From positions 7,715-71,714 of the IMG/VR virus record IMGVR_UViG_3300032893_000032: 64,000 nt of DNA, one strand, 5' to 3'. The position numbers and the translations under genes are program-made. Below the pieces are notes generated by a model. It was given only the letters and a program-made list of their open reading frames with translations, was not told where the DNA came from and did not search any database. Below are positions 36,747 through 53,054 of the stretch, one piece after another. Origin of the DNA: a virus. Within the stretch, counting starts at the first letter, position 1, and every line of letters starts with the position of its first letter.

Positions 36747-37403
36747 ATGAAGAAACGTGAAGTGGGAATTCGGTTTTGGTGCTTACTGCTGGTGCTCGTC
36801 GTCCTGTCTACTTTGTCCCGTGCCGACTCCATCCGCCTCGTCTACCTCCCTGGTGACGGGTCCTTCTCCATTTCCCAGTCTTCCGGGATACGGGAGTCCG
36901 CCTACGTCTGGGGCCTGGATGGAAGGTACGGAAGGAGAGGGCAGTGGCGGGGAGTGATAACCCTGTCCACCGGCCCGATGCTTAGCGGCAGCCTCCTGTC
37001 CTCAGCCGTCTTCTCCAGCCAAGGGTCGACGTTCGACGTCTACGGGGGACTGGGGAATAGCCTGTTTACCGGGGGGTTGACGGGAGACGTCTACTGGACG
37101 GCGCTGGGGGTGCATCGGCGGGCGGGAAAAGCAGAAGAGGAATTCGAACTGCGGGGAGAGGTGGAAGGGGAGCTGTGGAATGGGGTAGAGGTAACGGGGG
37201 AAGCGAGGCAGCAGGTGTGGCTACTGAGGAACGGGGAATGGCGAGGGGGGAAGGGGTGGATGTCGGCGGGCGGCGGAGGAAAGGGAGGAGGGGGAGGATT
37301 GGGGACGGCCCCGGAACCCTCCACCCTTTGGTTGCTGGGGAGCGGCGGACTAGCCACCGGATTGAGACTAGTCCTGCTTAAGGTCCGCCAGATCCGCCAG
37401 TAG
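36747..37403 (+). CDS. PEP-CTERM sorting-domain surface protein
   Basis: Signal peptide ending SRA-DS; C-terminal APEPSTLWLLGSGGL...KVRQIRQ. Confidence 0.85.
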   Translation: MKKREVGIRFWCLLLVLVVLSTLSRADSIRLVYLPGDGSFSISQSSGIRESAYVWGLDGRYGRRGQWRGVITLSTGPMLSGSLLSSAVFSSQGSTFDVYGGLGNSLFTGGLTGDVYWTALGVHRRAGKAEEEFELRGEVEGELWNGVEVTGEARQQVWLLRNGEWRGGKGWMSAGGGGKGGGGGLGTAPEPSTLWLLGSGGLATGLRLVLLKVRQIRQ

Positions 37404-38117
37404 CTGGGAGATGTCGAACCCGCTGTACGACTTTCCACTAAGCTTGTCCACCCAGTCTTGAGTCACGACGGCGTACGCCTCCGAACAAATCTTGGAGAAG
37501 GTCCCCCACCCCATCTGCTGGAGCTTCGCCCAGGTCACGCAGGTACACCCGTCCCGTCCGTAGCCGAACAGTGGTACGGAATGGCCGCCGAGATTTTGTC
37601 CTGATGGCTGGTCCCACGCCTTTCCCTGGTCGAACTGCTCCTCCATCGACTGGTAGACCGATATCCCGACGTTAACTCCGCCGAAGAGCCAGATGGCCTG
37701 GCGGACCTCCTCGATATTCGTCTGGTCCACTTCCGCCCATGCTAGGATCTGGTGTCCGGCAATCCCCGTCTTCCGCCAGTATTCCAGGACGTCCGGGATG
37801 GCCGCTCCTTGGTCGGTGGAAGGATCGCCGGGGACGTACCCGGTGATGGCTGAATAGGCCGCCACTACCTCTTCGACAGTCGGTACGACCATAGACCCGG
37901 TATGAATGGTGGCACACATCAGCGTGTGGGCGATGCAGGCGCAGGTACAATCCCCTATCGAATCGTTCCCGAACATGTTCCACTGGTCGGCGGGGACTTT
38001 GTACTCCCAGTAGACCTTGAGGGGAGAGGGGGGGACAGAAGCGAGGTAACGGCTGAGCTGAAGGGGACGGGAGGAGGATGGGGACTTTCGGGGGGCGAGT
38101 GCAGCTAGGGACTTCAT
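37368..38117 (-). CDS. Papain-fold (C1-like) cysteine peptidase
   Basis: GNDSIGDCTCA, DQGA, GGHSV...GY and TW; AGGAG RBS. Confidence 0.75.
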   Translation of the reverse strand: MKSLAALAPRKSPSSSRPLQLSRYLASVPPSPLKVYWEYKVPADQWNMFGNDSIGDCTCACIAHTLMCATIHTGSMVVPTVEEVVAAYSAITGYVPGDPSTDQGAAIPDVLEYWRKTGIAGHQILAWAEVDQTNIEEVRQAIWLFGGVNVGISVYQSMEEQFDQGKAWDQPSGQNLGGHSVPLFGYGRDGCTCVTWAKLQQMGWGTFSKICSEAYAVVTQDWVDKLSGKSYSGFDISQLLADLADLKQD

Positions 38118-38155
38118 AGGGAGAATTCTCCTGTGTAAACGGGTAGAAATGGGGT

Positions 38156-38193
38156 AAAAATCCGGAGAGGGCGCAGGTCTCCTCCCCCTCCGG
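38156..38193 (-). terminator. Possible intrinsic terminator after the lysis genes
   Basis: CCGGAG...CTCCGG stem followed by ATTTTT on the minus strand. Confidence 0.5.
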
Positions 38194-38236
38194 TAGGCGT
38201 TGGTTGCTGGCGGTAAGTACGAAATTCTAGGCCGAC

Positions 38237-38890
38237 TCAACTCCTGCTGGCGGCAGCCTTCTGCAGTTTCTTCAGCTTCTTCGCCTCGTGCGCCCGCATG
38301 TGGGCGAGCTTCTTGGCTGAGGCGGTCTGGCTGGTCCCCAGTCCGAAGTTGATTCCCGTGGTGTAGCCGCACTTGAACACGTTCCGGGCGGACACGTTGT
38401 CCGGATTAAGGACGGGAAAGGTCCCGCAGTCGGCCTCGAAGATGTTGAGGGTGAAGCGTCCTGACCCGGTGGGGTCGAAGTTGGCACCGAGGCGCAGCAT
38501 GGCGGCGGGCTTGTTGATGTTCTGGTTATTATTCACCGCCACCCGTCCGAATCCCCCCGCCCCGCCGAAGTACGGGTTAAGCCTGTTGCAGGGGAGGGTG
38601 GTCTCGTCCAGAAGCTTGCAGGCGAACCACATATCGATGTCGGTGCCGAAGAGGAAGCTCTCGGACCCAGCCGCCGGAATGGACCAGACGTCGGCGCGGA
38701 GGCGGGAGTAGGTGGTGAACTGGTAGGCTCCCCCTACGTCTATTCCACTGGTCGATCCGGCTACCGGCGATCCCAGGAAGTTGGACATGAAGGTGAAGCT
38801 GGGGGCGTTGGGGACATTGGACTGGGTCCAGCCGCATACCGCCAGCACCAGTGTGGCTGCCACGATAATGCTTACCTTTTTCATTTGCAT
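38237..38890 (-). CDS. Secreted, outer-membrane beta-barrel-like protein in the lysis cassette
   Basis: Signal peptide; amphipathic beta strands (LNPYFGGAGG, LRLGANFD); basic C-terminal helix. Confidence 0.6.
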   Translation of the reverse strand: MQMKKVSIIVAATLVLAVCGWTQSNVPNAPSFTFMSNFLGSPVAGSTSGIDVGGAYQFTTYSRLRADVWSIPAAGSESFLFGTDIDMWFACKLLDETTLPCNRLNPYFGGAGGFGRVAVNNNQNINKPAAMLRLGANFDPTGSGRFTLNIFEADCGTFPVLNPDNVSARNVFKCGYTTGINFGLGTSQTASAKKLAHMRAHEAKKLKKLQKAAASRS

Positions 38891-38932
38891 TCTCTCCTTT
38901 GTTGGTTTGTTCTACTTTTTTTACGCCAGTGT

Positions 38933-39340
38933 CTACTTACCACCAGTTCCACTGCCCGCGTTCCCACCAGTAGGGTCCAGGTAACTAATGGTCACCGGCC
39001 CCTGCTCCAGAGCAGCTTGCAGCTTTTGGAAGAACAGGTTGAACTCCTCCACCGAGTGGCCGACGAAGTCGGTACCGACAGTTTCCCCCACCAGAGTGCA
39101 GTCCTCCGTATCCTTCGCCCAGTTTCCCCAGTGTATCCGTATCCCCGAGTGGCCGGGGACGTTGAGGACGTGGGGCATGAGACGGCGGAAGCGTACGGAC
39201 TGGTCTATCACCAGGTCAAACGTCCCCGCCGCAAAGGTGGAGGCTGGCTCCAGGGTAAAACACTCGTGCACCCCGTCGATCAGCATCTCGCCCAGGGTGG
39301 CGATGGAGTCGGGCGGACGGCGCTGTACCACTATCTTCAT
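38933..39340 (-). CDS. Endolysin, DUF5675 (L,D-peptidase-like)
   Basis: TLGEM.IDG..C.TLEP, VPG.SGIRIHWGN...DTEDC.LVG. Confidence 0.85.
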   Translation of the reverse strand: MKIVVQRRPPDSIATLGEMLIDGVHECFTLEPASTFAAGTFDLVIDQSVRFRRLMPHVLNVPGHSGIRIHWGNWAKDTEDCTLVGETVGTDFVGHSVEEFNLFFQKLQAALEQGPVTISYLDPTGGNAGSGTGGK

Positions 39341-39348
39341 AGGGATGT

Positions 39349-39582
39349 CTAGTTATCCTCCCCTCCGTTGGATTGAGACCAGGCGAGGATCTTTGGACCC
39401 CATACCAGGGCCTCGCGGCTCACTACCGTGGCCAAAGCTACTTTTCCGACGTTCACCCACCAGTCGGCGGTGTGCCACCCCATGAACTGGGGAAATAAAG
39501 TGGTCATGGTGGCGTTGGTAAGCAGGGCGTTCACCGCCTGCTTTAGCGAAACGATGAGAAAAGACTTCAGTTTAGCTGTCAT
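39349..39582 (-). CDS. Putative holin
   Basis: 77 aa with two hydrophobic segments; next to the endolysin. Confidence 0.55.
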   Translation of the reverse strand: MTAKLKSFLIVSLKQAVNALLTNATMTTLFPQFMGWHTADWWVNVGKVALATVVSREALVWGPKILAWSQSNGGEDN

Positions 39583-39613
39583 CCCGTTCCTCCTTTTTGC
39601 CTACTCGTTCATC

Positions 39614-39952
39614 CTACCCATCCAGTTTTTCCTTGTCATGCATCCGGAAGCAGCGGTTCTCGATAAGCCGGAGACGGCGTTCGGACAGCTCCACCGACTG
39701 CTGGATAAGGGCGGTCTGCATCTTCAGCTCCCCTATCTGCTCGTCCCGCTTTCCATTAAGCTCCTTCTGCTCGCTGTGAAACTCGGTAAGAGCGCGGAGC
39801 TTCTGCTGGTTCTCGGTGTACATTTCTATCTGCTCCTTCTCGGTCTTTTTTCTGTCCAGATAAAGGGTGGCGAAGGCTACTATGAACACGCCCAGCTCGA
39901 TCACGTGTCCGATGTTGAACTCGAAAAATCCCTGTCCTTGCGTGATTACCAT
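39614..39952 (-). CDS. TM plus coiled-coil lysis-region protein
   Basis: FNIGHVIELGVFIVAFATLY TM segment followed by a coiled coil. Confidence 0.6.
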   Translation of the reverse strand: MVITQGQGFFEFNIGHVIELGVFIVAFATLYLDRKKTEKEQIEMYTENQQKLRALTEFHSEQKELNGKRDEQIGELKMQTALIQQSVELSERRLRLIENRCFRMHDKEKLDG

Positions 39953-40095
39953 TGTTGCTCGTCCCCCGGCCAGATCTCGCTGCGGTCGCCCCCTCAGACG
40001 CCGCAACGCTGGCTAACGACTGTCGACTCTCTACTGCTACCGCTATCATTACTTCTACATCTACTTTTATTACCATTACCATGGTTTCTCTGACT

Positions 40096-43000
40096 CTAGT
40101 GGTGACTTCCCCCAGTCACTATCCCCCCATCTCCCATCTTCATCCCGTCGTTCAGCGCTACCGTATAGTTCGACTGTCCAAACGCCCCGACGTGGTCCTC
40201 CGAGTACGGACCGTGGGGGCCGCAGTAGCTGGCCGCCGGACACACCCACTGGTGGCTGGTCATGTCGAACAGGAACTGGGAGTAGTTGAACCCCCCGACG
40301 TAGGACGATCCGGCGGCCAGCTCCACCTTCGTCAGGTCGAAGTTCGTCGACCAGGGACGGGCGGTGAAGGGGCAGTTGTTGGGGTCGAACGGAGTGGATG
40401 GGACGCAGGGGGTGATGGGGAAAACGTTCCCCGAGAGATATCCGGCAAACCCCAGGCAGCTCGGGTCGGGGGAGGACCCGAGGCAGCCAGCGGTCGTGGG
40501 AGTTGGGGACGCCCAGTTGGTAAAGGGTGATGGCGGGGAATTATTGCCCGACCCGCCGGGTACGGATAGGTAATTGGAAATGGGACGGCCCAGCATGACG
40601 GACCGGTACCAGGCGAACGTCTGGGGGTCCATGCACAGGTCCCCCGGAGCCGTCCCCCCAGAATTGTGGCTGCCCTCCCCCGTGGTGCAGGTCAGGCCGA
40701 CCAGGTTTACCCCCATCCCCGGTTTCGTCCCGGTGGGGAAGGCGAACAGGTTGTCGTGGTAGCGGTTGCTGATAGACTGGGCGGAGGTCCCGGCGGCATA
40801 GTCCCATCCCACCGGCTGCGTCCCGAACATGGTGTTGTGGTGGACGCGGATGCTGAAGGGGAGGCCGGAGCCGTTGCCCAGCATGCAAAAGTGGGTAGAT
40901 GGGGGGTAGTCATCAGGAAGCCCCACCTGGTTCCAGTAGACGTCCAGCCCGTTGGGAGCGGTGGGGGGAATGGCGTAGGCGACCGTAGAGCTGCTGTTCC
41001 CCACTATATATCCGTTGGCTGAGCAGGTCGAGTCGGAAATAGCACCCGACGTGAAGGTGGAAATGTCCTGCGTCTCCACCCCGTTCCCCGGATAGATGTC
41101 GGTTACCTGATAGGCGTGGGTAGGAATGATGATAGACCACTGGAGATTGCCGCAGGTGGCCACGGAATTGCACAGGGTCCCGGACGGGTAGCCCGACCCC
41201 GCAGGCGGCTGGTAGTCGAACGCGTCCCCTAGAGACCCGTCGTTGGTGATAAGCTGGGTCCCGTTGTTATAGGCGTAACGGATAGGGAAGGTCCCGGACC
41301 AGTCGACCACCGCCGTCGGGGTGATCTGTGCGCCGGAGCCGGTAGAGTTCCCGGTGAGGATGTACGCCGTACCCGTGGCGTATCCGCTTCCCATAGTCTG
41401 CTGCGTCATTCCCGTCACCGCTCCGCCGGAGACCGAGGTGACCTTGAAGACAGCCGCCCCCTGCTGGGTGCAGGACCCTGAGGCAAAGGTCAGGCAGGCG
41501 GTGAGGATCTTCCCCACGTCCCCCGAAACGAACCCGGTCCCGCCCGCCGACAGGGTGTAGGTGGAGATCGACCCCCCCGCATTGGTGATGATGACGGAAC
41601 AGTTTGGCATCACCACGCCGAAATTGTTCCCCGGCTTTCCCGTGGCCGGATTCGTACCGGTACAGTTGGGAGAGTTGGTCACCGGGTCCTGCCGGGAGGT
41701 GAACGACACGAGGACCACGCCCGAGGAGGAGACGACGGAGGAGAATGGAGTAGAATTAAGGGAAAAGACTGCGTCCGGATAGGCGGGATTGACCACCGAT
41801 CCGGGGACCGGGTCGAACCCCAGGGGGGAGGGACGGCAGGCGGCGTGGGAAACTCCCGAGAGGCGGGACATCTGGCAGTAGAAGTTCTGCTGCGTACCGG
41901 CAAATTCCGCTATCTCCCCTGCTCCCGTTCCCCAGCTGGCCGCCTCCCCCAGGTTCCCGACCACGCAGTTGAAGAAGTCCAGGTTCCCCATAGACTTCGA
42001 CACTCCCCCGCCGTTTCCCGGCGATCCCGCGCGTAGGCCAAGGGTCCAGGCCCCGGACGAGTCCCGGACCCAGCAGGACTGGATGTGGACGTTGTCCGTG
42101 CCATTCAGCGGCACCCCCAGCTGGTCGAACACCCCCGCCGCCCCTCCGCCCGAAATCGACCGCTCGTCGATCAACCAGGTGTATCCGTGCTGCGCGTCCG
42201 GCCAGGTGTGCTCGGCCAGAACCCCCACGAAGGCCACCCTCTCCCCCATCTTGCTCTCGATGGTGTTCTTGACGGAGTAGTTCATGGGGCAGGTATTGAG
42301 GCTGGCCCCTCCGGACAAGGTCCCGCATCCGAATGGTAAGGTGGGGGAGTGGCCTGCGCCGGCGGAGAGCTGGCGGTAGTCGGGATTACGGGAGAAGACG
42401 GAACGATGGATGAACATGTCATTAGCAATCCCCTTCTGATCCGCCGGTCCTCCCCCCGAGAACCACCCGGCGGACCCGCACTCCATGTACAGGCCGTAGA
42501 AGAGGATGTTGCCGGGGGTGGCGAACCCGGTGGAGATGCAGTGGGACTCGGAGTTCACCCAGTGGCTCTTCTCCAGGTAGGAATTGCCGAACCAGGAATT
42601 GTTGGCGTTCCAGGCGACGAGGGAGATGGTGTCGTCTCCGCAGCCGTTCGCCCACTGGGCGGGGGGATTGGTAAGGGAGAAGGAGACGGTGGTACCGGCG
42701 GTGCCGGGAACGACCGAGGAGGTGGAAAAGGTAAGGTCGGAAATGGAAGGCTGGACGGTGGTGGGGGTGAGCCAGACCCCGGTAGGGCCGAGGGTGTAAG
42801 GGGAGCCGTTGATCGTAATGGTGGCCCCGGGGACAAAGGTCAGTCCTATCCGGTCACCGTTCACCCAGGTAAAGTTCTTTCCGTCAGTGGTGGAAGCCTG
42901 CCCGGACATCGTCCACCCGTGCTGGGCGTTGGTGGCCTGCGTTCCCGTTCCGCACGGGCCGGAGGGCTGTCCGGGGTCTCCGGGGTCCCAGCCGTGGATG

Positions 43001-44205
43001 TAGGACCGCTCCAGTCCCACGTGGTCCGCCCCGTACCAGGTGGGGGCGGTAGTGGTGTTGACGGAGTAGTCGGCGTTGATCACCGCCCCCGAGGCGCGGA
43101 CGGGCTGGGCCGGGGAGTACCCCTTGGCCCCTCCCTGCGATCCGCCGGGGATGGGGGAGACCTGAAGGTCGCGCAGAACCACGTGGTTGGACCAGGTAAA
43201 GGGGCCATAGACCGGGTCGACGTAGGGAGAGGAGCCACCCAGGGTGTTGATGCTGGCGTCCTGGTCGAAAAGTATCCCGGAATTGGTAGTGGGAACCTTG
43301 CCGGAGGGTCCGGATTCGACTATCGACCACATGCGGGCTACGTCGTTTAGGCTACCTCCGGGCTTGCCATCTGAAGTCAAGGTGTGGCCGTCGCATCCCG
43401 GGTTCCTCTGGCCGCCGAATTCGGAGATGGAGGTGTAGAAGCCGTTGGGGGCGACCCCGCCGGAACAGGCCGGACGGTTAGGGGGAAGGGGCTGAGTAGA
43501 TTCGACTATGGCCCATTTGGTCGGCTCCTGATAAGTCACGGGGTCAAGCTTCCCGGTAACCAGTACCCCGTAGGCGTCCCCGGTGGTCTTGCCGTAGGTG
43601 GTCTCCACGATAGAGCAGGAGGGGGGGACGGCTAGGTGCCAGCAGGCATCCTTGTAGTGGGAGGAGGAGAAGTTGGATGGGGAACAGCCATTGCCAGGGG
43701 AGGAGGGAGGAGTGTTGGCATTGCACGCCCAGTCGTTGAAGAAAGCCTGGAGACCGGCCTGGGAGCAGGCGTAGGGGCCGTAGCCGGAGACCGCCGAACC
43801 CCCCATAGTGACGGATAGGTCATAAGACGGACAGTCGGTATCGGGCTGAGCGGGATTAACCCAGTTGACGGGGAGCTGGGCGGCGAAGTCGGTGTTGAGA
43901 CCGGGATAGACCTGATCCGACATCGACATGGAGTCGGTGAGGGTAGCGATATGCTGGGAATGGGAATTGTGTACGGTCACCAGGGCGTCGGTCAGGGTCT
44001 GGGAATCGGAGATGAAGAACCCGTGGCCGAGGCGGATGGTGTCGCCGAAGGATTGGAAGTCGGAGATGGTGATGATGGTGGAGTTCTGGCTGGCGAAGGG
44101 GGTACCCATTTGCCCCCCGGCGAGGAGGCCGCCGTTTAGGGTCCCCTGGGCACAGGAGAGCGCCGGGATGAGGACCAGAACTCCAGTAAGGAGGAAATTT
44201 CGCAT
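40096..44205 (-). CDS. Large beta-helix-like tail spike/adhesin with signal peptide
   Basis: AAGGA RBS; MRNFLLTGVLVLIPALSCA-Q; KN.IESK..ERV.F.G...EH.WPDAQ.G beta-helix pattern; Cys-rich. Confidence 0.65.
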   Translation of the reverse strand: MRNFLLTGVLVLIPALSCAQGTLNGGLLAGGQMGTPFASQNSTIITISDFQSFGDTIRLGHGFFISDSQTLTDALVTVHNSHSQHIATLTDSMSMSDQVYPGLNTDFAAQLPVNWVNPAQPDTDCPSYDLSVTMGGSAVSGYGPYACSQAGLQAFFNDWACNANTPPSSPGNGCSPSNFSSSHYKDACWHLAVPPSCSIVETTYGKTTGDAYGVLVTGKLDPVTYQEPTKWAIVESTQPLPPNRPACSGGVAPNGFYTSISEFGGQRNPGCDGHTLTSDGKPGGSLNDVARMWSIVESGPSGKVPTTNSGILFDQDASINTLGGSSPYVDPVYGPFTWSNHVVLRDLQVSPIPGGSQGGAKGYSPAQPVRASGAVINADYSVNTTTAPTWYGADHVGLERSYIHGWDPGDPGQPSGPCGTGTQATNAQHGWTMSGQASTTDGKNFTWVNGDRIGLTFVPGATITINGSPYTLGPTGVWLTPTTVQPSISDLTFSTSSVVPGTAGTTVSFSLTNPPAQWANGCGDDTISLVAWNANNSWFGNSYLEKSHWVNSESHCISTGFATPGNILFYGLYMECGSAGWFSGGGPADQKGIANDMFIHRSVFSRNPDYRQLSAGAGHSPTLPFGCGTLSGGASLNTCPMNYSVKNTIESKMGERVAFVGVLAEHTWPDAQHGYTWLIDERSISGGGAAGVFDQLGVPLNGTDNVHIQSCWVRDSSGAWTLGLRAGSPGNGGGVSKSMGNLDFFNCVVGNLGEAASWGTGAGEIAEFAGTQQNFYCQMSRLSGVSHAACRPSPLGFDPVPGSVVNPAYPDAVFSLNSTPFSSVVSSSGVVLVSFTSRQDPVTNSPNCTGTNPATGKPGNNFGVVMPNCSVIITNAGGSISTYTLSAGGTGFVSGDVGKILTACLTFASGSCTQQGAAVFKVTSVSGGAVTGMTQQTMGSGYATGTAYILTGNSTGSGAQITPTAVVDWSGTFPIRYAYNNGTQLITNDGSLGDAFDYQPPAGSGYPSGTLCNSVATCGNLQWSIIIPTHAYQVTDIYPGNGVETQDISTFTSGAISDSTCSANGYIVGNSSSTVAYAIPPTAPNGLDVYWNQVGLPDDYPPSTHFCMLGNGSGLPFSIRVHHNTMFGTQPVGWDYAAGTSAQSISNRYHDNLFAFPTGTKPGMGVNLVGLTCTTGEGSHNSGGTAPGDLCMDPQTFAWYRSVMLGRPISNYLSVPGGSGNNSPPSPFTNWASPTPTTAGCLGSSPDPSCLGFAGYLSGNVFPITPCVPSTPFDPNNCPFTARPWSTNFDLTKVELAAGSSYVGGFNYSQFLFDMTSHQWVCPAASYCGPHGPYSEDHVGAFGQSNYTVALNDGMKMGDGGIVTGGSHH

Positions 44206-44215
44206 CGGCTCGTCC

Positions 44216-44911
44216 TTAGGTAATGGTGATGGTCCAGGTGATCTGGAGGGTGTCGGCGATAGCCATGGAGACTGGGGTGAAGGTATTCTCAAAGAGAATG
44301 GGTCCGGTGCCAGCCGTTCCGCCAGTGGCGACTCCTGCCGATGCGATAGTCCCATTAGGAGTACCATGAGAAACGTCCTGAGCCGCTCCGGCGGTCCAGG
44401 TATAGGTAAGGGTATAGACCCCATTTCCGGTCCGGGCAAAGGTGGCCTGATGCCGGGCAAGGCCGGAGGTGGAAATCTCGTAAGTCCCCGGAGAAGCCCC
44501 CCCGTTCATGTTACAGTTGGAGGAGGCGGGGGTGGCGGAAGCGGGGCAGTCGGCGGCTGCTACGGTGCCGGAGACGGAGAGGGCTAGGTAATTACCGAGA
44601 CCGGCGGTAGGAAGACCGGAGGTGCCGGACATGAGGAAGGCGGACCAGTCCTTGGCGAGATTGGTATCGAGGTTGTGGGTGACCTCACGGGAGTAGACGG
44701 TCGACGGATCAGCGGCGCACCCGATTTGGTCAACTACGACCTGATACGGAGCATCTTTTCCATCTTGGAAGTAGGTGGTGTAGTTCTGACAGTGGCGGGC
44801 GACGATCTCCACTCGGTCGGCGTGCGACATGTGGTCGGCCTGGGCTAAGGCGAAGGTGGGGGTAAAGGTGAGTGCCGCCAGTACGAGGGTTGCTGCTAAT
44901 ACCTTTTTCAT
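44216..44911 (-). CDS. Tail-fibre-associated protein with signal peptide
   Basis: MKKVLAATLVLAALTFTPTFALA-Q; C-terminal GLAR..A....DTLQITWTIT typical of fibre/adaptor proteins. Confidence 0.65.
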   Translation of the reverse strand: MKKVLAATLVLAALTFTPTFALAQADHMSHADRVEIVARHCQNYTTYFQDGKDAPYQVVVDQIGCAADPSTVYSREVTHNLDTNLAKDWSAFLMSGTSGLPTAGLGNYLALSVSGTVAAADCPASATPASSNCNMNGGASPGTYEISTSGLARHQATFARTGNGVYTLTYTWTAGAAQDVSHGTPNGTIASAGVATGGTAGTGPILFENTFTPVSMAIADTLQITWTITIT

Positions 44912-44951
44912 TTGTCCTTTTCTCCTGTCTGTTTCGAATTTCGATTTCGAC

Positions 44952-45977
44952 TTACGGAAGTATACTGCAGCTTGCCCCAGCCACCACCGTGACGGTCCCG
45001 GCCACACTGGTCGTCGCCGCCTGCAGGCTAAACGTTCCCGGCGTACCAGCGTTCCACTGGATTGCCCCGTAGATCTCGAAGTTGTAGTTGGTGCTGGTGG
45101 CGAATGCATTGGCGCCCGAGAGGAGCGTCCCGTTAGTCACCGAGTTCGTCTCCTTCGGACCGGTGGTGACGTTGTTGGCGATGGCGGTGCCATACCAGAT
45201 GGACTGGGGGGTCTGGCTGGCGGTTATCGCCAGGGCCATTCCCGCCGTGGTGGAGGAAGAGGACCACAGGCCATCGCAGCGGAAGTGGATGGTGGAGTTG
45301 GCGGCGATGGTCGGGGAAGTGAGGCCGGATATGGTGGTTCCGGAGACGCTGTTGGTGGAGTAGGAGGTGGAAAAGAAGGAATTGGCGGCGTGAAGGGTGT
45401 GGTTGGTAACCGTCGGACCGGAAGCCCCGTCGTCTCCTGCCAGCGTTCCAGATGTATTGTTCCAGAACATCAGGTCGTTGACGACGGTCGTCCCCGGACC
45501 GGCGAGGCTGCCCGACACCGGGTTGATCTCGGGCGGGAAGAGGTAGACGAGGGAGGTGGAGCCGGAGCCTGTGGAGGCCGACTGGACGAAGCCTAGTACG
45601 TCCCCGCCGGACGCAGGATAAGTCGTGGACCCAGTATCGTGGCCGTCGCCGCCGACCGAGGAAGAGATCTGGATATAGTGCCGTACGGTTGTCGACCCAT
45701 CCACCACCATCGGCCATGCCCCGGAGATGGCGAGGCAGGCCAGCCCTGACGTTCCGGCGTTCGCCACCACCAGACCGGCATAACCGGTAGTATCGGTGGT
45801 CTGCATGACTACGGCCTGGCCGGTGGAGGTAAGTTTGGCCGCCTTGTTAAGAGTGGTCCCGGTGGAGGTGTCGTTGGGGACGGGGGCGGTGTTGAAGGGA
45901 CAGGCTTGAGCCATTCCCCGTGTGGAAAGGAAAAGGGCCGAAGCCAGCGCCAGAGTCAGTAGAAATGTGCGTCTCAT
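44952..45977 (-). CDS. Fibre/spike protein with signal peptide
   Basis: MRRTFLLTLALASALFLSTRGMA-Q; cement-like N-domain and beta-sandwich C-domain. Confidence 0.65.
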   Translation of the reverse strand: MRRTFLLTLALASALFLSTRGMAQACPFNTAPVPNDTSTGTTLNKAAKLTSTGQAVVMQTTDTTGYAGLVVANAGTSGLACLAISGAWPMVVDGSTTVRHYIQISSSVGGDGHDTGSTTYPASGGDVLGFVQSASTGSGSTSLVYLFPPEINPVSGSLAGPGTTVVNDLMFWNNTSGTLAGDDGASGPTVTNHTLHAANSFFSTSYSTNSVSGTTISGLTSPTIAANSTIHFRCDGLWSSSSTTAGMALAITASQTPQSIWYGTAIANNVTTGPKETNSVTNGTLLSGANAFATSTNYNFEIYGAIQWNAGTPGTFSLQAATTSVAGTVTVVAGASCSILP

Positions 45978-46011
45978 TGAGAATTCTCCTTGTTCCTAAA
46001 TTTCCTTATCC

Positions 46012-49000
46012 CTAGATCCTCTGTCCGGGGTAGATGGATAGCTGGTTCGCCGTCAGGATGTTGGACGAGCTTGCCGTCCCCCACGTCACCTGCAGGTCCA
46101 GATTCTGGTTGGCCGAGAACTGCAGCCCCGTCATCTGCCCGCTGTCGCACCCGCCCACCATCGCCCCGGCGGTGCTGAGGAAGCGGAAGCAGCCGTGGCC
46201 CTGAGCCGTAGTCAGTCCGGTGATGGTGAGGTAGTAGTCGAACTCCCACGCCGCCCCCGACAGCGAACCGACTACTGGGACGGTGATGGTGCGGCTGCCC
46301 GACCCCACGACTATCGTGACGGTGAGGGTAGGGGGAGAACCGGCTGTACTCAGTATCCCGCCCGCCGAAAAGTGGAGGGTCTTGTCCCCCGCCGAGTAGG
46401 GAAGGATGACGTTGGCGGTCAAGGTACGGTTGCCGATGAAGGTTGCCCCGAGGATGGTGGTGGCGGAGGCGGTATTAGAAACCGTGGAAGCGGAGGTGAG
46501 GGAAAGTCCGGGGTAGACCGGGGTGGCGAGGACCGGGGGGTAGAAGGACGATCCCCCGCCGCCTGATCCCGAGGGGACGAAGCATCCCACGGAATTACCC
46601 CCGACGTCTACGCCAGCCGCCGCCTGTCCCGCCGGGCATGGGGTGGGGGAAGTGGCAAGAGCGGAAGCGGTGGCGGCCAGTCCGGAGATTCCGACGGGGA
46701 GGGGATTGTTAAGGAGGGCGTTGGGAATGTGGCCGCCGGAATCGGTCTTTACCAGCTGGCTGGGGCCGTTGGTGGAATTACCCTGAGTCGTGACGTTGGA
46801 CTGGAAGGACCAGCCGGGGATGGATGGGTCGAAGAACAGACCGGAGAGGGAGGAAAGGCCGGAGACCAGCGGCAGGGCGTCCCCCTCAATCCCGACGACC
46901 GTCTGAGACGTATTGGTACCGGACAGATCCCCACCGGCAGTGAAAAGGTTACCAATCGACGGGTCAAACTTCACCCACCCCGCCCCGAGGATGTTCATGT
47001 AGAAGTGGCCATCGGTGTCGAACGCCCATCCGGACTGGGAGCCGGACAGCGCCGTGGGATGGTTGGAAAGGTTGGCGGTGGTGTACTGCTGGGGACAGGT
47101 AGGGCAGGTGGCGGAGATGGTGTCCTGCACCTCCAGCTTATTGGGAATTACCACTCCCCCGGTCCCGTTCGCTGCCGTATCTCCCACCTGCAGCCGGGTG
47201 TTGTCCCCCGACCCCGCCCATCCGGTGACGGCGGTGTTGTCGGTCCCGACGCTGCTCGTTCCGTTCCTATACTTCACCTGGTCGGCGTGGGCCAGCCGTA
47301 GCGACCCGGTCTGTGCGGAATTGGCGGAGGAGGATTCCAGACGGTTAAAGACCCAGGAGTAGGCGGCGTTGAACTGAGAAAAGATCGAGGCGTAGCCGGA
47401 AGAAATGGTGTAGGTCCCGGCGGAGGGAAGGGTGCCGGGCTGGAACCCGATGTCACAGCTGGCGGCGGCCAGGCAGGTGTTGGCACCAGGGGTGCAGGTA
47501 TTGGTGGATTCACAGGAAGACCCAGGAGCTTCCTTCGTCAGGACAGTGAAGGTGGTGTTAAGGAGAATGGCGAGGGAGCCGCTGGTAGGGGTAAGGGCGG
47601 GGAATTGGAAGGTCCCGCCTATCGGCCAGGCAAACTTGTTGGTGAGCGAGGGGTTGAGCATCGTCGCCCAGACGGTGGTGCCAAGGGAGGGGACGAAGAC
47701 CTGGGAGACTTGATTCTGAATTGGGCTGAGAGCGGCGTACCATCCGATCTCCGGATGGTTCTGGTAGGAGTAGATAGCGGAATTAGGAGAACCCTGGTCA
47801 ATAGTGGACTCGATAGGAAAGACCACGGGACCGGGAATGCCCTGAGGACCCTGGGGTCCGGTAGGGCCAGCGGGACCGGTCGCGCCCGCCGGACCGGTGG
47901 GGCCGGTAGCGCCGGTGGCTCCGGTCAGTCCACTGGGAATTCCGAAGTCGAGGGCAGCAGCGGAAGAGGACCCGCTATTACTGACGGTGGCGGGGGAACC
48001 GGGGGTAAGAGTGGTGGTGGAGTTGACGGAAATGGTGGCGGCGGTGCCGGCAGGACCGGTCGGACCGGTGGCTCCGGTGGGTCCCTGTGGCCCGGTGTTG
48101 CCCTGGGGGCCTTGAGGACCGGTAGGTCCGGTAGGTCCGGCGGGTCCCGTAGCGCCAGCCGGTCCCGTGGCCCCCGTCGGCCCCGGAGGACCCTGGAGAC
48201 TGCCCTGGGCGGTCCAGTGGCCGGAGATCTTCTGGTAGTAGATGCCGGTGGAAGAATTGATGTCGAAGTCGCCGTTCGACCCGGTGCCGTCCGAGGGGAC
48301 GCCGGACTGGGAATACCAGACGGACCCGGCGGTACCGGCAGGACCCTGGGGACCGGTTGGACCTTGGGGACCGGTGTTACCCTGAGGACCCTGTGGTCCG
48401 GTAGCCCCCTGTGGCCCAGTTGCACCAGTTGCACCCTGCGGACCCTGCGGCCCAGTCTGTCCGGTTGGACCCTGCGGACCGGTAGGTCCGGTTGCCCCGG
48501 TAGCTCCGGTAGGACCCTGGACTCCGGCGAACGACAGCACCCCCCAGTTGGAGTTGATCGTCGACCCGTAGACGCAGGGGGTGACGGAGCAAGGTTCCTG
48601 ATTAGTGTTGGAAGTGGTGGCGAGGAAGGAGGCTCCACGGTCGGAAACCGCCTGGCCAACGGCATAGGTCGGGGAGTTGGACCACGCCCCCTGCCACGCT
48701 ACCCCCGTACCTCCGCCCCCGGTGACGCACACCGGACGACCAGTGGTGTCATACCCCTGAACCACCGTCCCCGATCCACAGGCCAGGGAATAGATCCCGC
48801 CGAGCGATGAGGGGGTAGGAGGGGGAAGCTTACTAAGAAACATGTTGGGAAGGGAGGGGATGAACTGGTCGAAATTGCAGGTCCCTACGCCAGCGGTAGT
48901 CGAACACCAGTAGTTGGAGGTCTGGGGCTGGATGCACTGGTAGCCGGAACGCTGGGACTGGGGAATGAGGACCTGGCCCTGCGGACCACGGAGGGTGAGG

Positions 49001-49317
49001 GAGAAGCAGACGTTGGCCGGATTGGTGATGACGGTGTTGGGAAGCTTGCAGGGCTGGTTGATGGCCCCGGTGGTAACGGAGCAGGAGGTGGGGGACTGGA
49101 TCTGCTGCCCCCCGCCGCCTAACTGGTAGGAGATGGGGTTGCCGTAATTGTCCACCGGGGCTAGGATCATGGTGCCGGAGGAGAGGAGGGTAGCACCCGG
49201 ACCGGTGATGTCGGAGGCGGTAACGGTCATCCATACCGGGTCCTGAGCAAGGGCCGGGGAGATGAGGGACAGGGCCGAAGCCAGCAGGAGAAAAAGGGAG
49301 ACTGTAAGTTTTCGCAT
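46012..49317 (-). CDS. Collagen-like tail fibre with signal peptide
   Basis: [25 protein letters not shown]; three (Gly-X-Y)n tracts, WQGAWS carbohydrate-binding-like module and GGDLSGT repeat. Confidence 0.8.
47830..48525 (-). repeat. Collagen Gly-X-Y coding repeats
   Basis: 9-nt periodic GPT/GAT/GPQ codons in three blocks. Confidence 0.9.
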
Positions 49318-49334: not shown

Positions 49335-50021
49335 TTAAGCCTTCCCGATGGCTACCCACATGACCTCGGTCCCGCCCCTAGCCGCCTCGATGGTGGCCCC
49401 GGTGGTGGAGACGCTGGTGTAGTCGCAGGATGAACTGTTGGCCGTCATAACCAGGGCGGGGCGGGCGGAAAATGTCTTGGGGAAGGAGAAGGATGTGGGG
49501 GAACCGCCGGGGACGGTAAGCGCCCCGAACTGGATGAGAAGGGGGCCGATGTAGATGTAGCTGGAGGAGGGAGTGGCGACGAGATTGCTGTTCCCCGTAC
49601 CCACCGCCCGCTGGACGAAGGCGGTGTCGGCCAGACGGGTGGAGTTGTCGGTAGATGGTTGGGTGGGGCAGGTAGGATTTCCGGTAAGAGGGGTGTTGGT
49701 GAGGATGCCGGGGAGGTCGGCAGCCGTCAGGACGTTGGCGAATATGGCTGCCAGGGATGTAACGGCGGCGGAGTAGGACCCGGCGTAAGCCGCCTGCCCC
49801 GGCGATCCGTCCAGCACCATATACCCCTTGGTAGCGAGAGCGAGGGCGAGAGCGGTGTAGAAGGTGGACGACTGGTAACGGAACTTGTTGATGGAGACGG
49901 AGGGGACGATGGCTCCCGAAGCCACGCCGTTGACCCTCTGCCCGTCGGTCTGATAAGTGGAATCGTTCTCCTGATTGGTGGCGGGAGGGTTGAACTGGAG
50001 GAAGTTGTTAGAACCCGGCAT
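49335..50021 (-). CDS. Baseplate-attached short tail fibre
   Basis: R..G..SG..PS...NK...Q, LTGNPT.PT....DNST.LA.TAFVQ and LIQFG gp53-like C-terminus; no signal peptide. Confidence 0.8.
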   Translation of the reverse strand: MPGSNNFLQFNPPATNQENDSTYQTDGQRVNGVASGAIVPSVSINKFRYQSSTFYTALALALATKGYMVLDGSPGQAAYAGSYSAAVTSLAAIFANVLTAADLPGILTNTPLTGNPTCPTQPSTDNSTRLADTAFVQRAVGTGNSNLVATPSSSYIYIGPLLIQFGALTVPGGSPTSFSFPKTFSARPALVMTANSSSCDYTSVSTTGATIEAARGGTEVMWVAIGKA

Positions 50022-50070: not shown

Positions 50071-51417
50071 TTAGACGGCATATCCCGTATCGGCACCCGC
50101 CACGGTAGCGTCGTTCCGGTCGGCTCCGTACATCGGGAGTTGGGCGAATGAAATGTTGGACAGCACCCCCTCCGAAACCGGTAGGATGAGACCGTTGAGA
50201 ATGATCTGCTGGGTGAGGTTGTCGAAGTCTCCCGACACGACTATAATTACCGACATGTCCTGGTTGTCGATGATCCGGAGGCTGGTACCGGGGAAGGCGG
50301 AATTCCAGTAGGGATAGAGGTCCCTAGGTAGTCCGGACCAGTGGTTCTGGATGACCTTCCAGCGGAGCAGCATGCGGTAGTGAGAGTCGTCCATCAGGGC
50401 GCTGAAGTTCTGCGTCGCCGTGATGTTGACCGTCAGCCCCGACCCGCTCCCCCCGGTCGTGCTCAACCCGCTGGCGTTGCTGTACCCGTTGCCCCCAGTG
50501 TTAACCGACAGCTGGTAGACGTTGCCCAGTCCCCCCACTGCGGTAACCTTGGCCGTTCCGCCGCTGGCTCCCCCCTGTATTATGTTTACGATGTCCCCCA
50601 GGTGGTAATGCGAACCGCCGCCTCCGCCGCCTCCCGCCTGCTGCACGGTAAGGAGCGCCCCGCCCATGGGCTGGAAGGGGAGAAGGCGGGGGACGCCGAT
50701 AACCTGTCCCAGGATGTCCAGCTGTTGTCCAACGGCGAGGTCCAGGTCGAAGTCCGATGGGAGGAGGGAGGCGGAATACTGAATGTGGGAAAGGACCCCA
50801 ACGATGGTCCCCAGCCACTGCTGCAGATTGGGGGCGGAGGAATATTCGGAAGTAAGAAGGCCGAGGTAATAATCGACTGCCGATATGCGGAGACAGGAGA
50901 CCGCAGCCAGTTCCCAGATAGTGGACCCCGGGCCGCCGGAAGGTACGTAGTCGACGGCGGACTTGACCGAGGCGTAGGCGGTGCCGAACGGGGCCGGACC
51001 GGAGATAGTTAATGAGTGCCAGTTCGAATCGGTAAGAACGGCGGACTGGGAAACGTACCCGAGGATGTTCCCCTGGGAGTCGAAAAATTCCACGTAGGCC
51101 TTCGGCTGCATCGGGCCGGATACGTACTTGATAGCGATGGTGAGGGAGAAGTAGTCGCCGAACTTGGCCGGGAAGTATCCGGGAGTCCACCCTAGGGTGT
51201 CCGCCCGCTGGCTGCTGGCCACCACGCCGCCGAAGTGGTCGGCGGAGGAAATCTGGAGGGACTGGGCACCGGCATAAGGGGTGGAGGTGTCGTAAGATAG
51301 AGACGGAGGATTGCCGCCGCTGTCCGGCTGCAGGAACCAGCCGGGGGGAGGGAGGCCGGGAAGCTGGAATCCGCCGTTCTGAATCGGTAGGGGAACGGAC
51401 TGAAGGGGGGTGGACAT
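50071..51417 (-). CDS. Baseplate wedge (DUF2612) with N-terminal CBM-like domain and an internal insertion
   Basis: FDLDLAVGQQLDILGQVIGVPR, DDSHYR.LL..K...NHW and IIDNQDMS. Confidence 0.85.
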   Translation of the reverse strand: MSTPLQSVPLPIQNGGFQLPGLPPPGWFLQPDSGGNPPSLSYDTSTPYAGAQSLQISSADHFGGVVASSQRADTLGWTPGYFPAKFGDYFSLTIAIKYVSGPMQPKAYVEFFDSQGNILGYVSQSAVLTDSNWHSLTISGPAPFGTAYASVKSAVDYVPSGGPGSTIWELAAVSCLRISAVDYYLGLLTSEYSSAPNLQQWLGTIVGVLSHIQYSASLLPSDFDLDLAVGQQLDILGQVIGVPRLLPFQPMGGALLTVQQAGGGGGGGSHYHLGDIVNIIQGGASGGTAKVTAVGGLGNVYQLSVNTGGNGYSNASGLSTTGGSGSGLTVNITATQNFSALMDDSHYRMLLRWKVIQNHWSGLPRDLYPYWNSAFPGTSLRIIDNQDMSVIIVVSGDFDNLTQQIILNGLILPVSEGVLSNISFAQLPMYGADRNDATVAGADTGYAV

Positions 51418-51435
51418 TGGGCTGCGAACTAGGGA

Positions 51436-52647
51436 CTAGATGCTGTTGATCTGTACTCCGCCGGACGACGCCACCTGGTTGTACGGAACCGGGATGTCGA
51501 TGGTGGTAACGGGTCCGGGGGAAAGTCCTAGGGCCACGCCCCGGACGCTGTAGATGGGCTGCTGGAGATTGGTGTTCTGCGACATGGCGACGGCGTATAA
51601 GGCCGACTGGGTAACGGTCTCCCCGATGGCTAGCGACCCGAGATAAGAAACGAGGGCGGACTGGATGGCAGCGGTGACGGAGGAGGTGTAGGCCGGGGTA
51701 AGTCCGTGGATTTGGACGACCACGTAGATGGGAAGGAATCCGGGACCGGACCCCACCGCCGGAGCGGAGATGACATCGAACTGGATCGGTTCGGTGAGCT
51801 GGGTGTTGGGATCGAGGACGTTCACCACGGTAGTGCCGTTGGTCGCGCACCCCTCGGACTTGTTGGTATAGATGGTGGTGGCCAGGGTAAGGGGATCGCC
51901 TCCCTGGACGATGACGGTAATGGAGTGAGGGGGGCAGCCGTTCGAATCGGTAGAGCCGGTAGGGTTGTGCTCGATGGCGGCGCGAACTACGCCGGAAACG
52001 GCTTCGACCTGGGCCAGGGTACCGGCGACGAGGGAGCGGGATGGCTTGGCTACCGACTGGAAGAAACGGGCACGGAGCTGGCTATCCGACTCCACAGGCT
52101 GTCCGGGGGTGGCGACGTTCGACCCGTTGTCCACTCCGGTCCATCCCGACTGGGGATTGGTGATGATGGAGAGCTGTCCGGGGGCGGTAATGTTGAAATT
52201 TCCAAGTTGCTCACAGATGACCAGGGCCTGGGCGTTGCCTGTGCCGTCGAGGGTGATGGACGGGGAAAGGTCCCAGAGTAACCCGTAGACGGTATCCTGC
52301 ACCACTCCGTTGGAGATGGTGGCGTTGGGAGTGCCAGTGAGGTTGACGAGGCAAATGGAATGGGTGGCGGGCTTACGGGAAATCCCGACGAGCTTGCACA
52401 GGGCGTCCAGTCCCGCTCCGACCGCCGTCTGTGGGGAAAACTGGTTATAAGAGAGCTGTAGCCCCTGCATGGCGTCGGCAAGGGCCAGGGAGGTGGAGGA
52501 AATCTCCTGGTGGTCGGAGGAATCGTTTCCCAGGTAGACCGACTGGCCGTAGATGGAGAGGTAGGCCGACTGGAGAAAGTCCAGGATGTCCTGGTAGGAC
52601 GGAAGATGAAGGCCGGAGGCGTCGACGTATGGTGGGGTATAGGACAT
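51436..52647 (-). CDS. Baseplate J-like wedge protein
   Basis: A.G.GLD, ESDSQLRAR and PPHSI..IV.GG motifs. Confidence 0.92.
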   Translation of the reverse strand: MSYTPPYVDASGLHLPSYQDILDFLQSAYLSIYGQSVYLGNDSSDHQEISSTSLALADAMQGLQLSYNQFSPQTAVGAGLDALCKLVGISRKPATHSICLVNLTGTPNATISNGVVQDTVYGLLWDLSPSITLDGTGNAQALVICEQLGNFNITAPGQLSIITNPQSGWTGVDNGSNVATPGQPVESDSQLRARFFQSVAKPSRSLVAGTLAQVEAVSGVVRAAIEHNPTGSTDSNGCPPHSITVIVQGGDPLTLATTIYTNKSEGCATNGTTVVNVLDPNTQLTEPIQFDVISAPAVGSGPGFLPIYVVVQIHGLTPAYTSSVTAAIQSALVSYLGSLAIGETVTQSALYAVAMSQNTNLQQPIYSVRGVALGLSPGPVTTIDIPVPYNQVASSGGVQINSI

Positions 52648-52652
52648 AGGAG

Positions 52653-53054
52653 TTAGGCCAAAGAGGCTGATGGAGGCTGTGGGTAAGTGATCACGGGTAT
52701 GGGTCCGAAGACGGTCGAAACGCTACAGGAGAAGGAGAGGCGGCGGGTGGACTTGTCGATGGAGGACTGGACGTTCGAAACGCCGGTGACATAGGGAGTA
52801 TCGGTAATTCGCTTCTGAATAAGGAGACTGACCTGGGGAAGGTTGGCCCCACCGTAAGTCAAGATCTTCTGCCACAGGGGTAGGCCGTCGGTCAGGTTCT
52901 CCCACCATTCCCCCTCGAATAGGAGCAGGCGGGTGCGGATGATCTGGTCGACAGCGGCCTTGTCGGCAAGGAAATTCCCCTGTCCCTGGCCACGCTGCGG
53001 ATCATTCGAACCGTCAGTAGATAGCGCCCGGACTGTGATCAAGGGTGCGGCCAT
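52653..53054 (-). CDS. Baseplate sheath initiator (gp25/W-like)
   Basis: TRLLLFEGEWW...DGLP; TPYV.GV. Confidence 0.8.
   Translation of the reverse strand: MAAPLITVRALSTDGSNDPQRGQGQGNFLADKAAVDQIIRTRLLLFEGEWWENLTDGLPLWQKILTYGGANLPQVSLLIQKRITDTPYVTGVSNVQSSIDKSTRRLSFSCSVSTVFGPIPVITYPQPPSASLA

Follow-up and report, generated by a model that had tools for sequence, protein, structure and literature searches.

Predicted Sec leaders on four consecutive fiber-region genes of a contractile-tailed wetland phage

Results

The window analyzed here is a 64,000-nt stretch of the ~71.5-kb genome of a contractile-tailed phage of wetland origin, whose host probably belongs to the Acidobacteriota. Four genes, referred to as A–D, follow the baseplate block and a short fiber in gene order (Table 1), with intergenic gaps of 10–40 nt and one strand used throughout. 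From the short fiber to the end of D, consensus scans for terminators and for promoters of the sigma-70 type found no sites beyond chance. As originally predicted, the baseplate-proximal short fiber lacks a signal peptide; it carries the tail-fiber motif LTGNPTCPTQPSTDNSTRLADTAFV and matches PHROG tail fiber families 4209, 2631, 22682, 454, and 7032. A PEP-CTERM protein gene adjoins the lysis block on the opposite strand. The contig yielded no integrase or resolvase, and the phage encodes its own PolA, helicases, and ThyX; for these reasons it is likely virulent, and A–D must therefore act in lytic growth.

Table 1. Features of the late region, in window coordinates unless marked otherwise
Feature	Position	Strand	Details
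Downstream block	37368–40006	−	5 genes, past D
PEP-CTERM protein gene	36726–37403	+	Pfam PF07589, E = 1.9e-4, 21.8 bits (cutoff 20.7)
phrog_19005 peptidase-like	37368–38372	−	downstream block
Leader-bearing protein	38237–38890	−	217 aa; downstream block
DUF5675	38933–39340	−	downstream block
Holin-like ORF	39349–39582	−	77 aa; label read from sequence, no family match behind it
phrog_3999 membrane/coiled-coil protein	39614–40006	−	downstream block
Gene D	40096–44205	−	1369 aa
Gene C	44216–44911	−	231 aa
Gene B	44952–45977	−	341 aa
Gene A	46012–49317	−	1101 aa
Leader of A	49246–49317	−	residues 1–24; predicted cleavage before Gln25
Short fiber	49335–50021	−	228 aa; 2 Cys; leaderless
Baseplate block	50071–54796	−	Pfam/PHROG profile matches; every gene leaderless
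DUF2612 protein	50071–51417	−	baseplate block; leaderless
Baseplate J	51436–52647	−	baseplate block; leaderless
Wedge W-like	52653–53054	−	baseplate block; leaderless
Spike	53055–53825	−	baseplate block; leaderless
Hub	53732–54796	−	baseplate block; leaderless
Leader-bearing protein, second cluster	62027–64000 (in-window part)	−	713 aa; 19 Cys; start MRNRAWAALFVAALISYSAFG before Gln, across contig junction
Other second-cluster members	contig 890–4370 (outside window)		221, 574, and 357 aa

The start sites and N-termini of A–D agree with the original prediction of RBS-supported starts and four consecutive Sec-type signal peptides with Gln at +1. The ATG codons at 49317 (A), 45977 (B), 44911 (C), and 44205 (D) each have a Shine–Dalgarno-like motif 7–13 nt on their 5′ side, namely AGGAGG (A), AAGGAG (B), AGGAG/AAGGA (C), and AAGGA (D). 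For A, C, and D, frames that open farther upstream were rejected as true starts because they overlap the preceding genes. Sec leaders were defined by a basic n-region, an uncharged hydrophobic h-region of ~10–20 residues, and small residues at −3 and −1, and were called by inspection and with a crude rule set made for this analysis, not SignalP. Such leaders were found on A, B (residues 1–23, MRRTFLLTLALASALFLSTRGMA before Gln), C (residues 1–23, MKKVLAATLVLAALTFTPTFALA before Gln), and D (residues 1–19, MRNFLLTGVLVLIPALSCA before Gln), all ending small-x-Ala in the canonical Sec/SPase I form. The rule-based test flagged 0/26 leaderless late structural genes of the phage. Leaders are borne by 10 of the 69 phage genes, and 1.5% of random circular gene orders contain a run of at least four.

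Gln at +1 of the SPase I site, as in the Bacteroidetes-type Q-rule, occurs in 4/4 of A–D and in 7/8 of the large leader-bearing proteins of this phage, compared with only 7/56 leader-positive ORFs when 397 kb from an Acidobacteria MAG was examined. An alternative assignment of D as a lipoprotein (SPase II; ..ALSC/AQ) was rejected, as A-L-S-C departs from the lipobox L-[AS]-[GA]-C; the leaders of D homologues end in ..ECLGQ, ..PAFGQ, ..PALGQ, and ..ALAQ, and the lipobox Cys is not conserved.

Predicted leaders are retained in most members of all four families and are conserved as a feature, not as a sequence, across divergent homologues. The rule-based test detects one at the same place, with a different sequence, in 5/5 homologues of the A N-domain, and is passed by 21/23 non-self homologues of B (12/12 in the alignment by eye) and 57/73 homologues of C; by eye, 6/7 non-self homologues of D begin with one. 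The homologues start at the same Met and display n-, h-, and c-regions and small-x-small sites. Cys enrichment travels with the leader. The mature parts, most of them described from the outset as rich in closely spaced Cys, contain 20 (A), 4 (B), 4 (C), and 34 (D) Cys, and the mature leader-bearing proteins are enriched relative to 26 late proteins that lack leaders (MWU p = 1.7e-5). The same trend accompanies leaders in 17 other loci (p = 0.001), and the leaderless members of the C family (P0062, P0071, P0080, P0094, and P0098) have 0–1 Cys.

Leader conservation and Cys enrichment strongly support the predicted export of A–D, which very probably fold in the periplasm and not at the site of tailed-phage particle assembly. 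It is highly improbable that the N-terminal segments are uncleaved membrane anchors or artifacts of start choice, with cytoplasmic assembly proceeding as usual. The leader calls do rest on sequence rules, and longer frames exist for three of the genes, but those frames run into their neighbors while the chosen ATGs carry RBS motifs. The start Met and leader architecture shared among homologues, together with even Cys counts and the enrichment itself, which fit an oxidizing compartment, also weigh against such an artifact.

Gene A joins its leader to a conserved Cys-rich N-domain (residues ~25–200), a CBM-like stretch, a collagen region (~264–500), and a C-terminal part of ~600 aa. The collagen fiber expected among the mature parts was recovered here, with PF01391 matching three stretches (E = 3.1e-22, 78.5 bits vs a gathering cutoff of 27.2). 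Membership of A in tail-fiber families extends outside the collagen repeats: phrog_819 (tail protein, E = 1.3e-51) covers residues 264–782, and phrog_5073 (tail fiber, E = 2.6e-49) covers residues 202–349, including the non-collagen residues 202–263. The N-domain homologues (P0099–P0103) are all leader-bearing with conserved Cys, and P0103 combines a leader and an A-type N-domain with tail-fiber PHROGs 4209, 22682, 2631, 7032, and 454, which are common to the leaderless short fiber. These family matches support a probable fiber nature for A.

For B, the proposed label "adaptor" was not confirmed. No Pfam or PHROG family matched B, and a match to Rcc01698_C is weak and sub-threshold (E = 0.011); its mature part opens with the conserved C-P-x-G-T..P-N-D..T-G-T-T. 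After its leader, C is a predicted β-sandwich with the conserved motif ARHCQ.Y...C..DPSTVF...HNL.T (model pLDDT 82.6). A BFVD search with the C model gave 30 hits at E ≤ 1e-3, some of them to named tail fiber and minor tail proteins. VIA-align aligned it with 8jou_a (GP4 fiber/adaptor; Z 8.4, rmsd 3.1, 120 aligned) and 9h4p_BD (HFTV1 tail; Z 8.2, rmsd 2.2, 119 aligned), a Z near 8 being the edge of that tool's common-arrangement range, and the six best rows were all phage virion chains. The modeled fold of C thus appears to resemble phage fiber, adaptor, and baseplate chains, and a fiber nature is supported.

The description of D as β-helix spike-like could not be substantiated, with no match in Pfam (even at E ≤ 1), PHROGs, PDB sequences, or 50,697 phage records. 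Atlas neighbors that carry Beta_helix score 0.87–0.88; these sub-threshold leads (all <0.9) put D close to Acidobacteriota β-helix clusters. P0105, a D homologue with 64% identity, has an additional Phosphoesterase domain at its C-terminus (E = 4.9e-25). The atlas leads would suit a reading in which A–D are auxiliary metabolic genes, secreted carbohydrate-active enzymes that would feed the infected host, a role suggested for soil viruses, and soil prophage CAZymes with leaders do exist (5%, 3261/64,678, in the available part of PMC13507307). We regard this as improbable: Pfam returned no CAZyme or other enzyme family in A–D, A is a collagen fiber and C has a predicted fiber/adaptor fold, and leaders occur on 4/4 genes against the 5% baseline.

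The pattern is wider than the four genes first singled out. A second set of four Cys-rich genes with leaders separates the head module from the tail module and extends beyond the window, with the 713-aa protein as its last member. Comparable clusters were seen at 17 further IMG/VR loci and in two genomes of the siphovirus type; in locus L050, the genes with leaders are interspersed among those for the Ad1 adaptor and Hc1 head closure. Clusters are located at boundaries between modules, either head/tail or tail/lysis, and in genome G003 after the lysozyme gene. Such borders are also insertion places of accessory cargo, which counts against a particle role.

Discussion

We propose with high confidence that A–D are late proteins of the fiber or spike kind made with cleavable Sec leaders. 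Sec would carry them across the inner membrane, SPase I would cut before Gln, and the proteins would then fold in the oxidizing periplasm with disulfide bonds; the exposed Gln may be capped as pyroglutamate. The particle, baseplate and leaderless short fiber included, would be built in the cytoplasm, and the exported proteins would meet it only once the holin opens the inner membrane, attaching on the outside to bind receptors or cut glycans. The phage would thereby obtain disulfide-stabilized appendages suited to life in soil or wetland. Whether A–D join the particle in this manner is nearly an even call, leaning slightly toward doubt. The analysis shows the leaders, their conservation, the Cys enrichment, the fiber-type modules, and the late-operon position; from these we infer cleavage, disulfides, pyroglutamate, and attachment for A–D. 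Of the original interpretation, the export part is strongly supported, and the fiber nature is supported for A and C. Leaderless host-recognition candidates exist in each phage examined (the short fiber here; J-like central fibers in genomes G002 and G003), so receptor binding need not depend on the exported set alone.

The same export evidence also fits a scenario in which A–D remain outside the particle and act on or from the envelope of the infected cell. They could keep progeny from sticking to debris or infected cells by cutting or masking surface glycans, loosen slime for release, or form surface fibers anchored by the post-leader N-domain. The module-border positions, the leaderless receptor-binding candidates, and the phosphoesterase domain on one D homologue all favor this scenario, as do the MAT (mosaic adhesive trimer) fibers of Bdellovibrio bacteriovorus. 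As described in the accessible part of PMC10769870, these pair a signal peptide and a conserved β-rich domain of ~130 aa with a long trimer resembling phage tail fibers or tailspikes and with swappable tips, a plan paralleled, by description, in A and its five homologues. The conserved post-leader domain of A recalls cell-surface, non-virion fibers, which counts against a particle role. MAT fibers differ in that a cellular predator, and not the late region of a phage, encodes them, and they were shown on its surface or vesicle; in many, an S74 chaperone-protease domain forms the end (PMC10769870, same part), a family for which Pfam gave no match in A–D. An envelope role is a credible possibility but clearly short of even. 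Approximately 9 kb (~15 kb with the second cluster) is large for accessory use in a likely virulent 71.5-kb genome, and the modules are of the virion fiber kind. An outer-membrane route is also not evident, since A–D carry no PEP-CTERM or other sorting tail by eye and no such Pfam family.

Among phage genes with leaders, the lom/bor-type morons of lambda follow the tail-tip gene or neighbor the lysis genes, and they encode small outer-membrane proteins of temperate phages with their own promoters in lysogens. In contrast, A–D are large and fiber-type, belong to a phage without an integrase, and showed no promoter or terminator in the scans. Sec- or SAR-exported endolysins (fOg44 Lys44 and P1 Lyz type) are likewise late phage proteins that use host Sec before lysis, but they are lysis enzymes encoded by single genes and not clusters (PMC6116005, available part). 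Leader cleavage also exposes Gln in Q-rule genes of Porphyromonas gingivalis phages, whose function is unknown and which their authors read as envelope modifiers, in further agreement with an envelope role (PMC10367356, available part). The Q-rule is described as Bacteroidetes-specific, and "Acidobacteria," "other phyla," and "phage" appear nowhere in the accessible text of PMC5837995.

Attachment of A–D to the virion is made plausible, by analogy, by the cultured Cellulophaga phage phi18:3 (NC_021794), whose GenBank record annotates gp085, gp086, and gp087 as virion, structural, and tail proteins "based on experimental MS/MS proteomics." This record of leader-bearing proteins as virion proteins speaks against a purely envelope role. 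Like A–D, the three are consecutive late genes, in phi18:3 just upstream of the lysis genes, with basic/hydrophobic leaders, small-x-small sites, and Gln at +1; among the other proteins with MS support in that stretch of phi18:3, 0/9 carry a leader. Unlike the present phage, phi18:3 is a podovirus of Bacteroidota, and its three proteins have almost no Cys (0, 1, and 3). The MS/MS label could stem from co-purifying envelope material. A tblastn search against phage records found no sequence similarity between A–D and phi18:3, and no paper in the literature searched discusses the leaders of gp085–087.

By the standard teaching, every part of a tailed-phage particle folds and is assembled in the cytoplasm. 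We tentatively suggest, at somewhat less than even confidence, that tailed phages infecting Acidobacteriota and, judging from the phi18:3 record, Bacteroidota build two-compartment particles: head, tail, and baseplate would be cytoplasmic, outer fibers and spikes would be periplasmic with disulfides and a pyroglutamate cap, and the two would be joined after holin opening. To our knowledge, such a route is absent from textbooks, and our literature search found no paper describing a periplasmic fiber route for tailed phages. If host-recognition gear is routinely exported by Sec, phage assembly would gain a late extracytoplasmic step. Fiber folding would then rely on host Dsb and SPase, representing new host factors and resistance routes, and recombinant receptor-binding proteins or depolymerases of this type would need periplasmic expression. 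In soil viromes, genes with leaders are frequently classed as cargo of a metabolic or envelope kind, and the reading proposed here would affect such calls.

A run of signal-peptide genes in the fibre region

Four fibre-type late genes (A–D) follow the leaderless short fibre on one strand, 10–40 nt apart. As the original prediction held, each opens with the start signals listed in the table and a predicted Sec/SPase I signal peptide (the leader), in which an uncharged hydrophobic stretch separates a basic n-region from a small-x-Ala site with Gln at +1; its statement that the short fibre has no such segment also stood. The longer upstream frames of A, C, and D extend into the preceding genes. 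Leaders were called with our own rule-based test (basic n-region, h-region, small residues at −3/−1) rather than a trained predictor, and the test flags 0 of the 26 leaderless late structural genes of the phage. When 69 genes, 10 of them leader-bearing, are shuffled, 1.5% of the orders contain a run of at least four such genes. The predicted export of A–D is the firm part of our interpretation. Assignment of D as a lipoprotein was rejected from an alignment of its homologues.

Features of the phage genome; positions refer to the window unless the contig (the whole virus record) is named
Feature	Position	Strand	Remark
Short fibre, 228 aa	49335–50021	−	Leaderless; downstream of the DUF2612 gene
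A	46012–49317	−	ATG, Shine-Dalgarno-like motif, leader
B	44952–45977	−	ATG, Shine-Dalgarno-like motif, leader
C	44216–44911	−	ATG, Shine-Dalgarno-like motif, leader
D	40096–44205	−	ATG, Shine-Dalgarno-like motif, leader
Second cluster	contig 890–4370 (outside the window) and window 62027–64000	−	713-aa gene spans the contig junction
Large terminase region, portal region, DUF4054 and Mu-F-like proteins		−	Head module
Major capsid	571–1656	−	Head module
Sheath	58982–60382	−	Tail module
Tube, tape measure with SLT domain, plug, hub, spike, W-like wedge, baseplate J, DUF2612		−	Tail module
217-aa leader-bearing protein	38237–38890	−	No known family
Papain-like peptidase candidate	37368–38372	−	phrog_19005, E=1.6e-34
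PEP-CTERM protein	36726–37403	+	Opposite strand, adjoining the export cluster
Adenylosuccinate-synthetase-like, HD, PolA and ThyX genes (as a group)	26003–27448, 28402–31449, 32881–33492, 22913–23686	+	Replication module
DEAD/Helicase_C_2 helicase	17795–20467	+	Candidate intein

Conservation of leaders, cysteines, and Gln at +1

Judged by their homologues, the predicted leaders of the A–D families are under selection. The N-terminal segments recur in all five homologues of the Cys-rich A N-domain (residues ~25–200), which share a conserved Cys set, and in 21 of the 23 non-self members of the B family (24 proteins including the phage's own), 57 of the 73 non-self members of the C family (74 representatives including its own), and 6 of the 7 non-self D homologues, the seventh of which begins inside the alignment. 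Within the 12-member B alignment, every protein has a leader of poorly conserved sequence, and the mature part opens with an invariant C-P..P-N-D..T-G-T-T block. Some of the 16 C-family failures are truncated and others are genuinely leaderless; the leaderless members P0062, P0071, P0080, P0094, and P0098 contain 0–1 Cys each.

Mature A, B, C, and D contain 20, 4, 4, and 34 Cys, respectively. Leaving the PEP-CTERM protein aside, the phage's leader-bearing proteins have a higher Cys content than its 26 leaderless late ones (Mann-Whitney p=1.7e-5). This enrichment fits folding in an oxidising compartment, with putative disulfides.

Gln occupies +1 in 4/4 of A–D and in 7/8 of the large leader-bearing proteins of the phage, compared with 7/56 leader-positive ORFs in 397 kb of an Acidobacteria MAG scored by the same test (Fisher p=4e-5). 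In the literature, the Q-rule is specific to Bacteroidetes (PMC5837995), and that paper makes no mention of Acidobacteria. The Gln excess hints at a Q-rule-like habit beyond the Bacteroidota, or in the phage's true host.

Resemblance of A–D to virion proteins

By the modules of A and the predicted structure of C, A–D are virion-type proteins. The collagen fibre named in the original prediction was borne out in A (collagen repeats, Pfam E=3.1e-22), which also matches, beyond the collagen part, the tail PHROG phrog_819 over 264–782 and the tail-fibre phrog_5073 over 202–349. One homologue, P0103, joins a leader and an A-type N-domain to two copies of the tail-fibre motif of the short fibre, and it and the leaderless short fibre match the same tail-fibre PHROGs. 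The structure model of the A N-domain (pLDDT 48.4) was too poor for a fold search, and a predicted complex of three short-fibre 120–228 chains with three A 25–200 chains, run without controls, scored 0.24 against a mark of 0.32.

The model of C (pLDDT 82.6) gave 30 BFVD matches at E≤1e-3, among them tail fibers of Stenotrophomonas phage Ponderosa and Xanthomonas phage phi31 and a minor tail protein of Mycobacterium phage Fortunato. In a VIA-align all-against-representatives structural search, the best six rows were all phage virion chains, led by the GP4 fibre/adaptor (Z 8.4) and the HFTV1 tail (Z 8.2) and followed by the KP1 baseplate, Sf14 neck, phiKZ gp139, and phi812 baseplate. Both searches were clearer than Foldseek against the PDB, where the best match reached only E=4.2e-3.

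Neither B nor D has an assigned fold, and two further labels did not carry over: "adaptor" for B found no confirmation in Pfam, PHROG, or PDB sequence searches, nor did "beta-helix" for D in those searches or among its atlas neighbours. PDB sequence searches with D and with the B profile returned no match, and neither D, B, C, nor the A N-domain had a tblastn match in 50,697 GenBank phage records. That A–D are AMGs is a weak alternative: no enzyme family was found in them, and among soil prophage CAZymes only 5% have leaders (PMC13507307). A D homologue with 64% identity carries a C-terminal phosphoesterase domain.

Leader-bearing clusters elsewhere

Between its head and tail modules the phage carries four more leader-bearing, Cys-rich genes (221, 574, 357, and 713 aa), a second cluster whose 357-aa product contains a chitobiase/hexosaminidase C-terminal-type domain (PF13290, E=9.4e-6). 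Clusters of large leader-bearing ORFs, A-like and B-like ones among them, also follow the tip genes in G002 and G003, two IMG/VR genomes of siphovirus type with lambda-J-like tail tips; G002 has two more leader-bearing ORFs between its capsid and connector genes.

IMG/VR was scanned with the narrower C-family alignment (A4), the wide one (A2) being without a usable conserved stretch. The scan returned 19 loci, counted as 17 once L044 and L046, with identical gene lists, were dropped. In 15 of the 16 loci with a called C-like gene, that gene has a leader; the next ORF of at least 150 aa is leader-bearing too in 12/15. Within 5 kb, leader-bearing ORFs make up 36/107, an enrichment over the 11/76 farther off (Fisher p=0.0036), and ORFs with leaders are richer in Cys (p=0.001). 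One locus, L050, reads terminase, portal, protease, capsid, a 205-aa ORF, C-like (leader), 691 aa (leader), Ad1 adaptor, 148 aa (leader), Hc1 head closure, and 572 aa (leader). On this gene order, leader-bearing genes are woven into morphogenetic operons and not just placed at the tail-fibre position. An IMG/VR locus search with the DUF2612 protein alone found no relative.

Genome, lifestyle, and host

The window spans bases 7715–71714 of the 71,714-base record. The ends of this record (1–205 and 71510–71714) overlap by 205 nt with one mismatch, so we interpret the genome as circular or terminally redundant and about 71.5 kb long; the record is labelled linear in IMG/VR, with a CheckV completeness estimate of 76%. 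The minus strand holds the head and contractile-tail modules, and the plus strand holds replication genes (UvrD-like and DEAD helicases, PolA, ThyX, adenylosuccinate-synthetase-like and HD-domain proteins). A search of the contig for integrase and resolvase families found none, so a virulent lifestyle is probable.

Three lines of evidence, each short of proof, point to a probable host among the Acidobacteriota: a MAG titled Acidobacteria bacterium supplies the only B-family match among one-genome-per-species contigs, a PEP-CTERM gene is present in the phage, and the atlas neighbours of D, which serve as leads only, are mostly Acidobacteriota. The B-like domain is present in only 4/401 sampled Acidobacteriota genomes. 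PEP-CTERM-like ORFs, identified by eye only, also lie beside clusters in G003 (9971–10861, +) and in the Acidobacteria MAG locus L004 (13125–13727, −). Three wetland metagenome DNA runs, one of them possibly the source, contain pieces of the phage in contigs that are fragmented and include foreign pieces drawn in by collagen repeats; the sequencing-run search listed no RNA runs holding the phage stretch.

Four of the replication genes together resemble a 2-aminoadenine (Z-base) genome cluster, to which the names PurZ, DatZ, and DpoZ belong. The adenylosuccinate-synthetase-like gene best matches short archaeal PurA entries in the PDB and also PurZ (7odx), the HD protein best matches DatZ (6zpa, E=3.3e-6), and PolA has an exonuclease and a UDG-like N-terminus. 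An intein seems to split the DEAD/Helicase_C_2 helicase gene (PF14890, at 34.6 bits a little below the cutoff of 35.8). The 217-aa leader-bearing protein and the peptidase candidate come after holin-like and DUF5675 genes; G002 has a similar peptidase-like ORF after its leader-bearing cluster.

Fate of the exported proteins

A literature search of the main texts of articles found no description of Sec-exported tail fibres of tailed phages, and the terms "tail fiber", "collagen", "transmembrane", "depolymerase", and "pectate" do not occur in the Tunturi Acidobacteriota phage paper. Sec-exported phage endolysins are described in a review (PMC6116005). The main rival to attachment to the particle is that A–D stay with the cell envelope, or work as free enzymes or adhesins. 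Bdellovibrio MAT fibres show that a leader, a conserved beta-rich domain, and a phage-like trimeric fibre together can serve as a cell-surface device (PMC10769870), and P. gingivalis phage genes with Q-rule leaders are read by their authors as envelope modifiers (PMC10367356).

A cultured phage offers a precedent for attachment. Cellulophaga phage phi18:3 gp085, gp086, and gp087 begin with MKNKITIIMILMSISFGYS, MKKTIYILSILLLTISGVSA, and MKHTFSIVLFFILSIGLNA, respectively, each followed by Gln, and its record lists them as virion, structural, and tail proteins "based on experimental MS/MS proteomics analysis"; in the same stretch, 0/9 other MS-supported proteins have a leader. Given this precedent, modules typical of virion fibres, and the share of the genome (about a fifth) that a seemingly virulent phage devotes to such genes, we favour late attachment, in which the exported fibre-type proteins would join the particle late.
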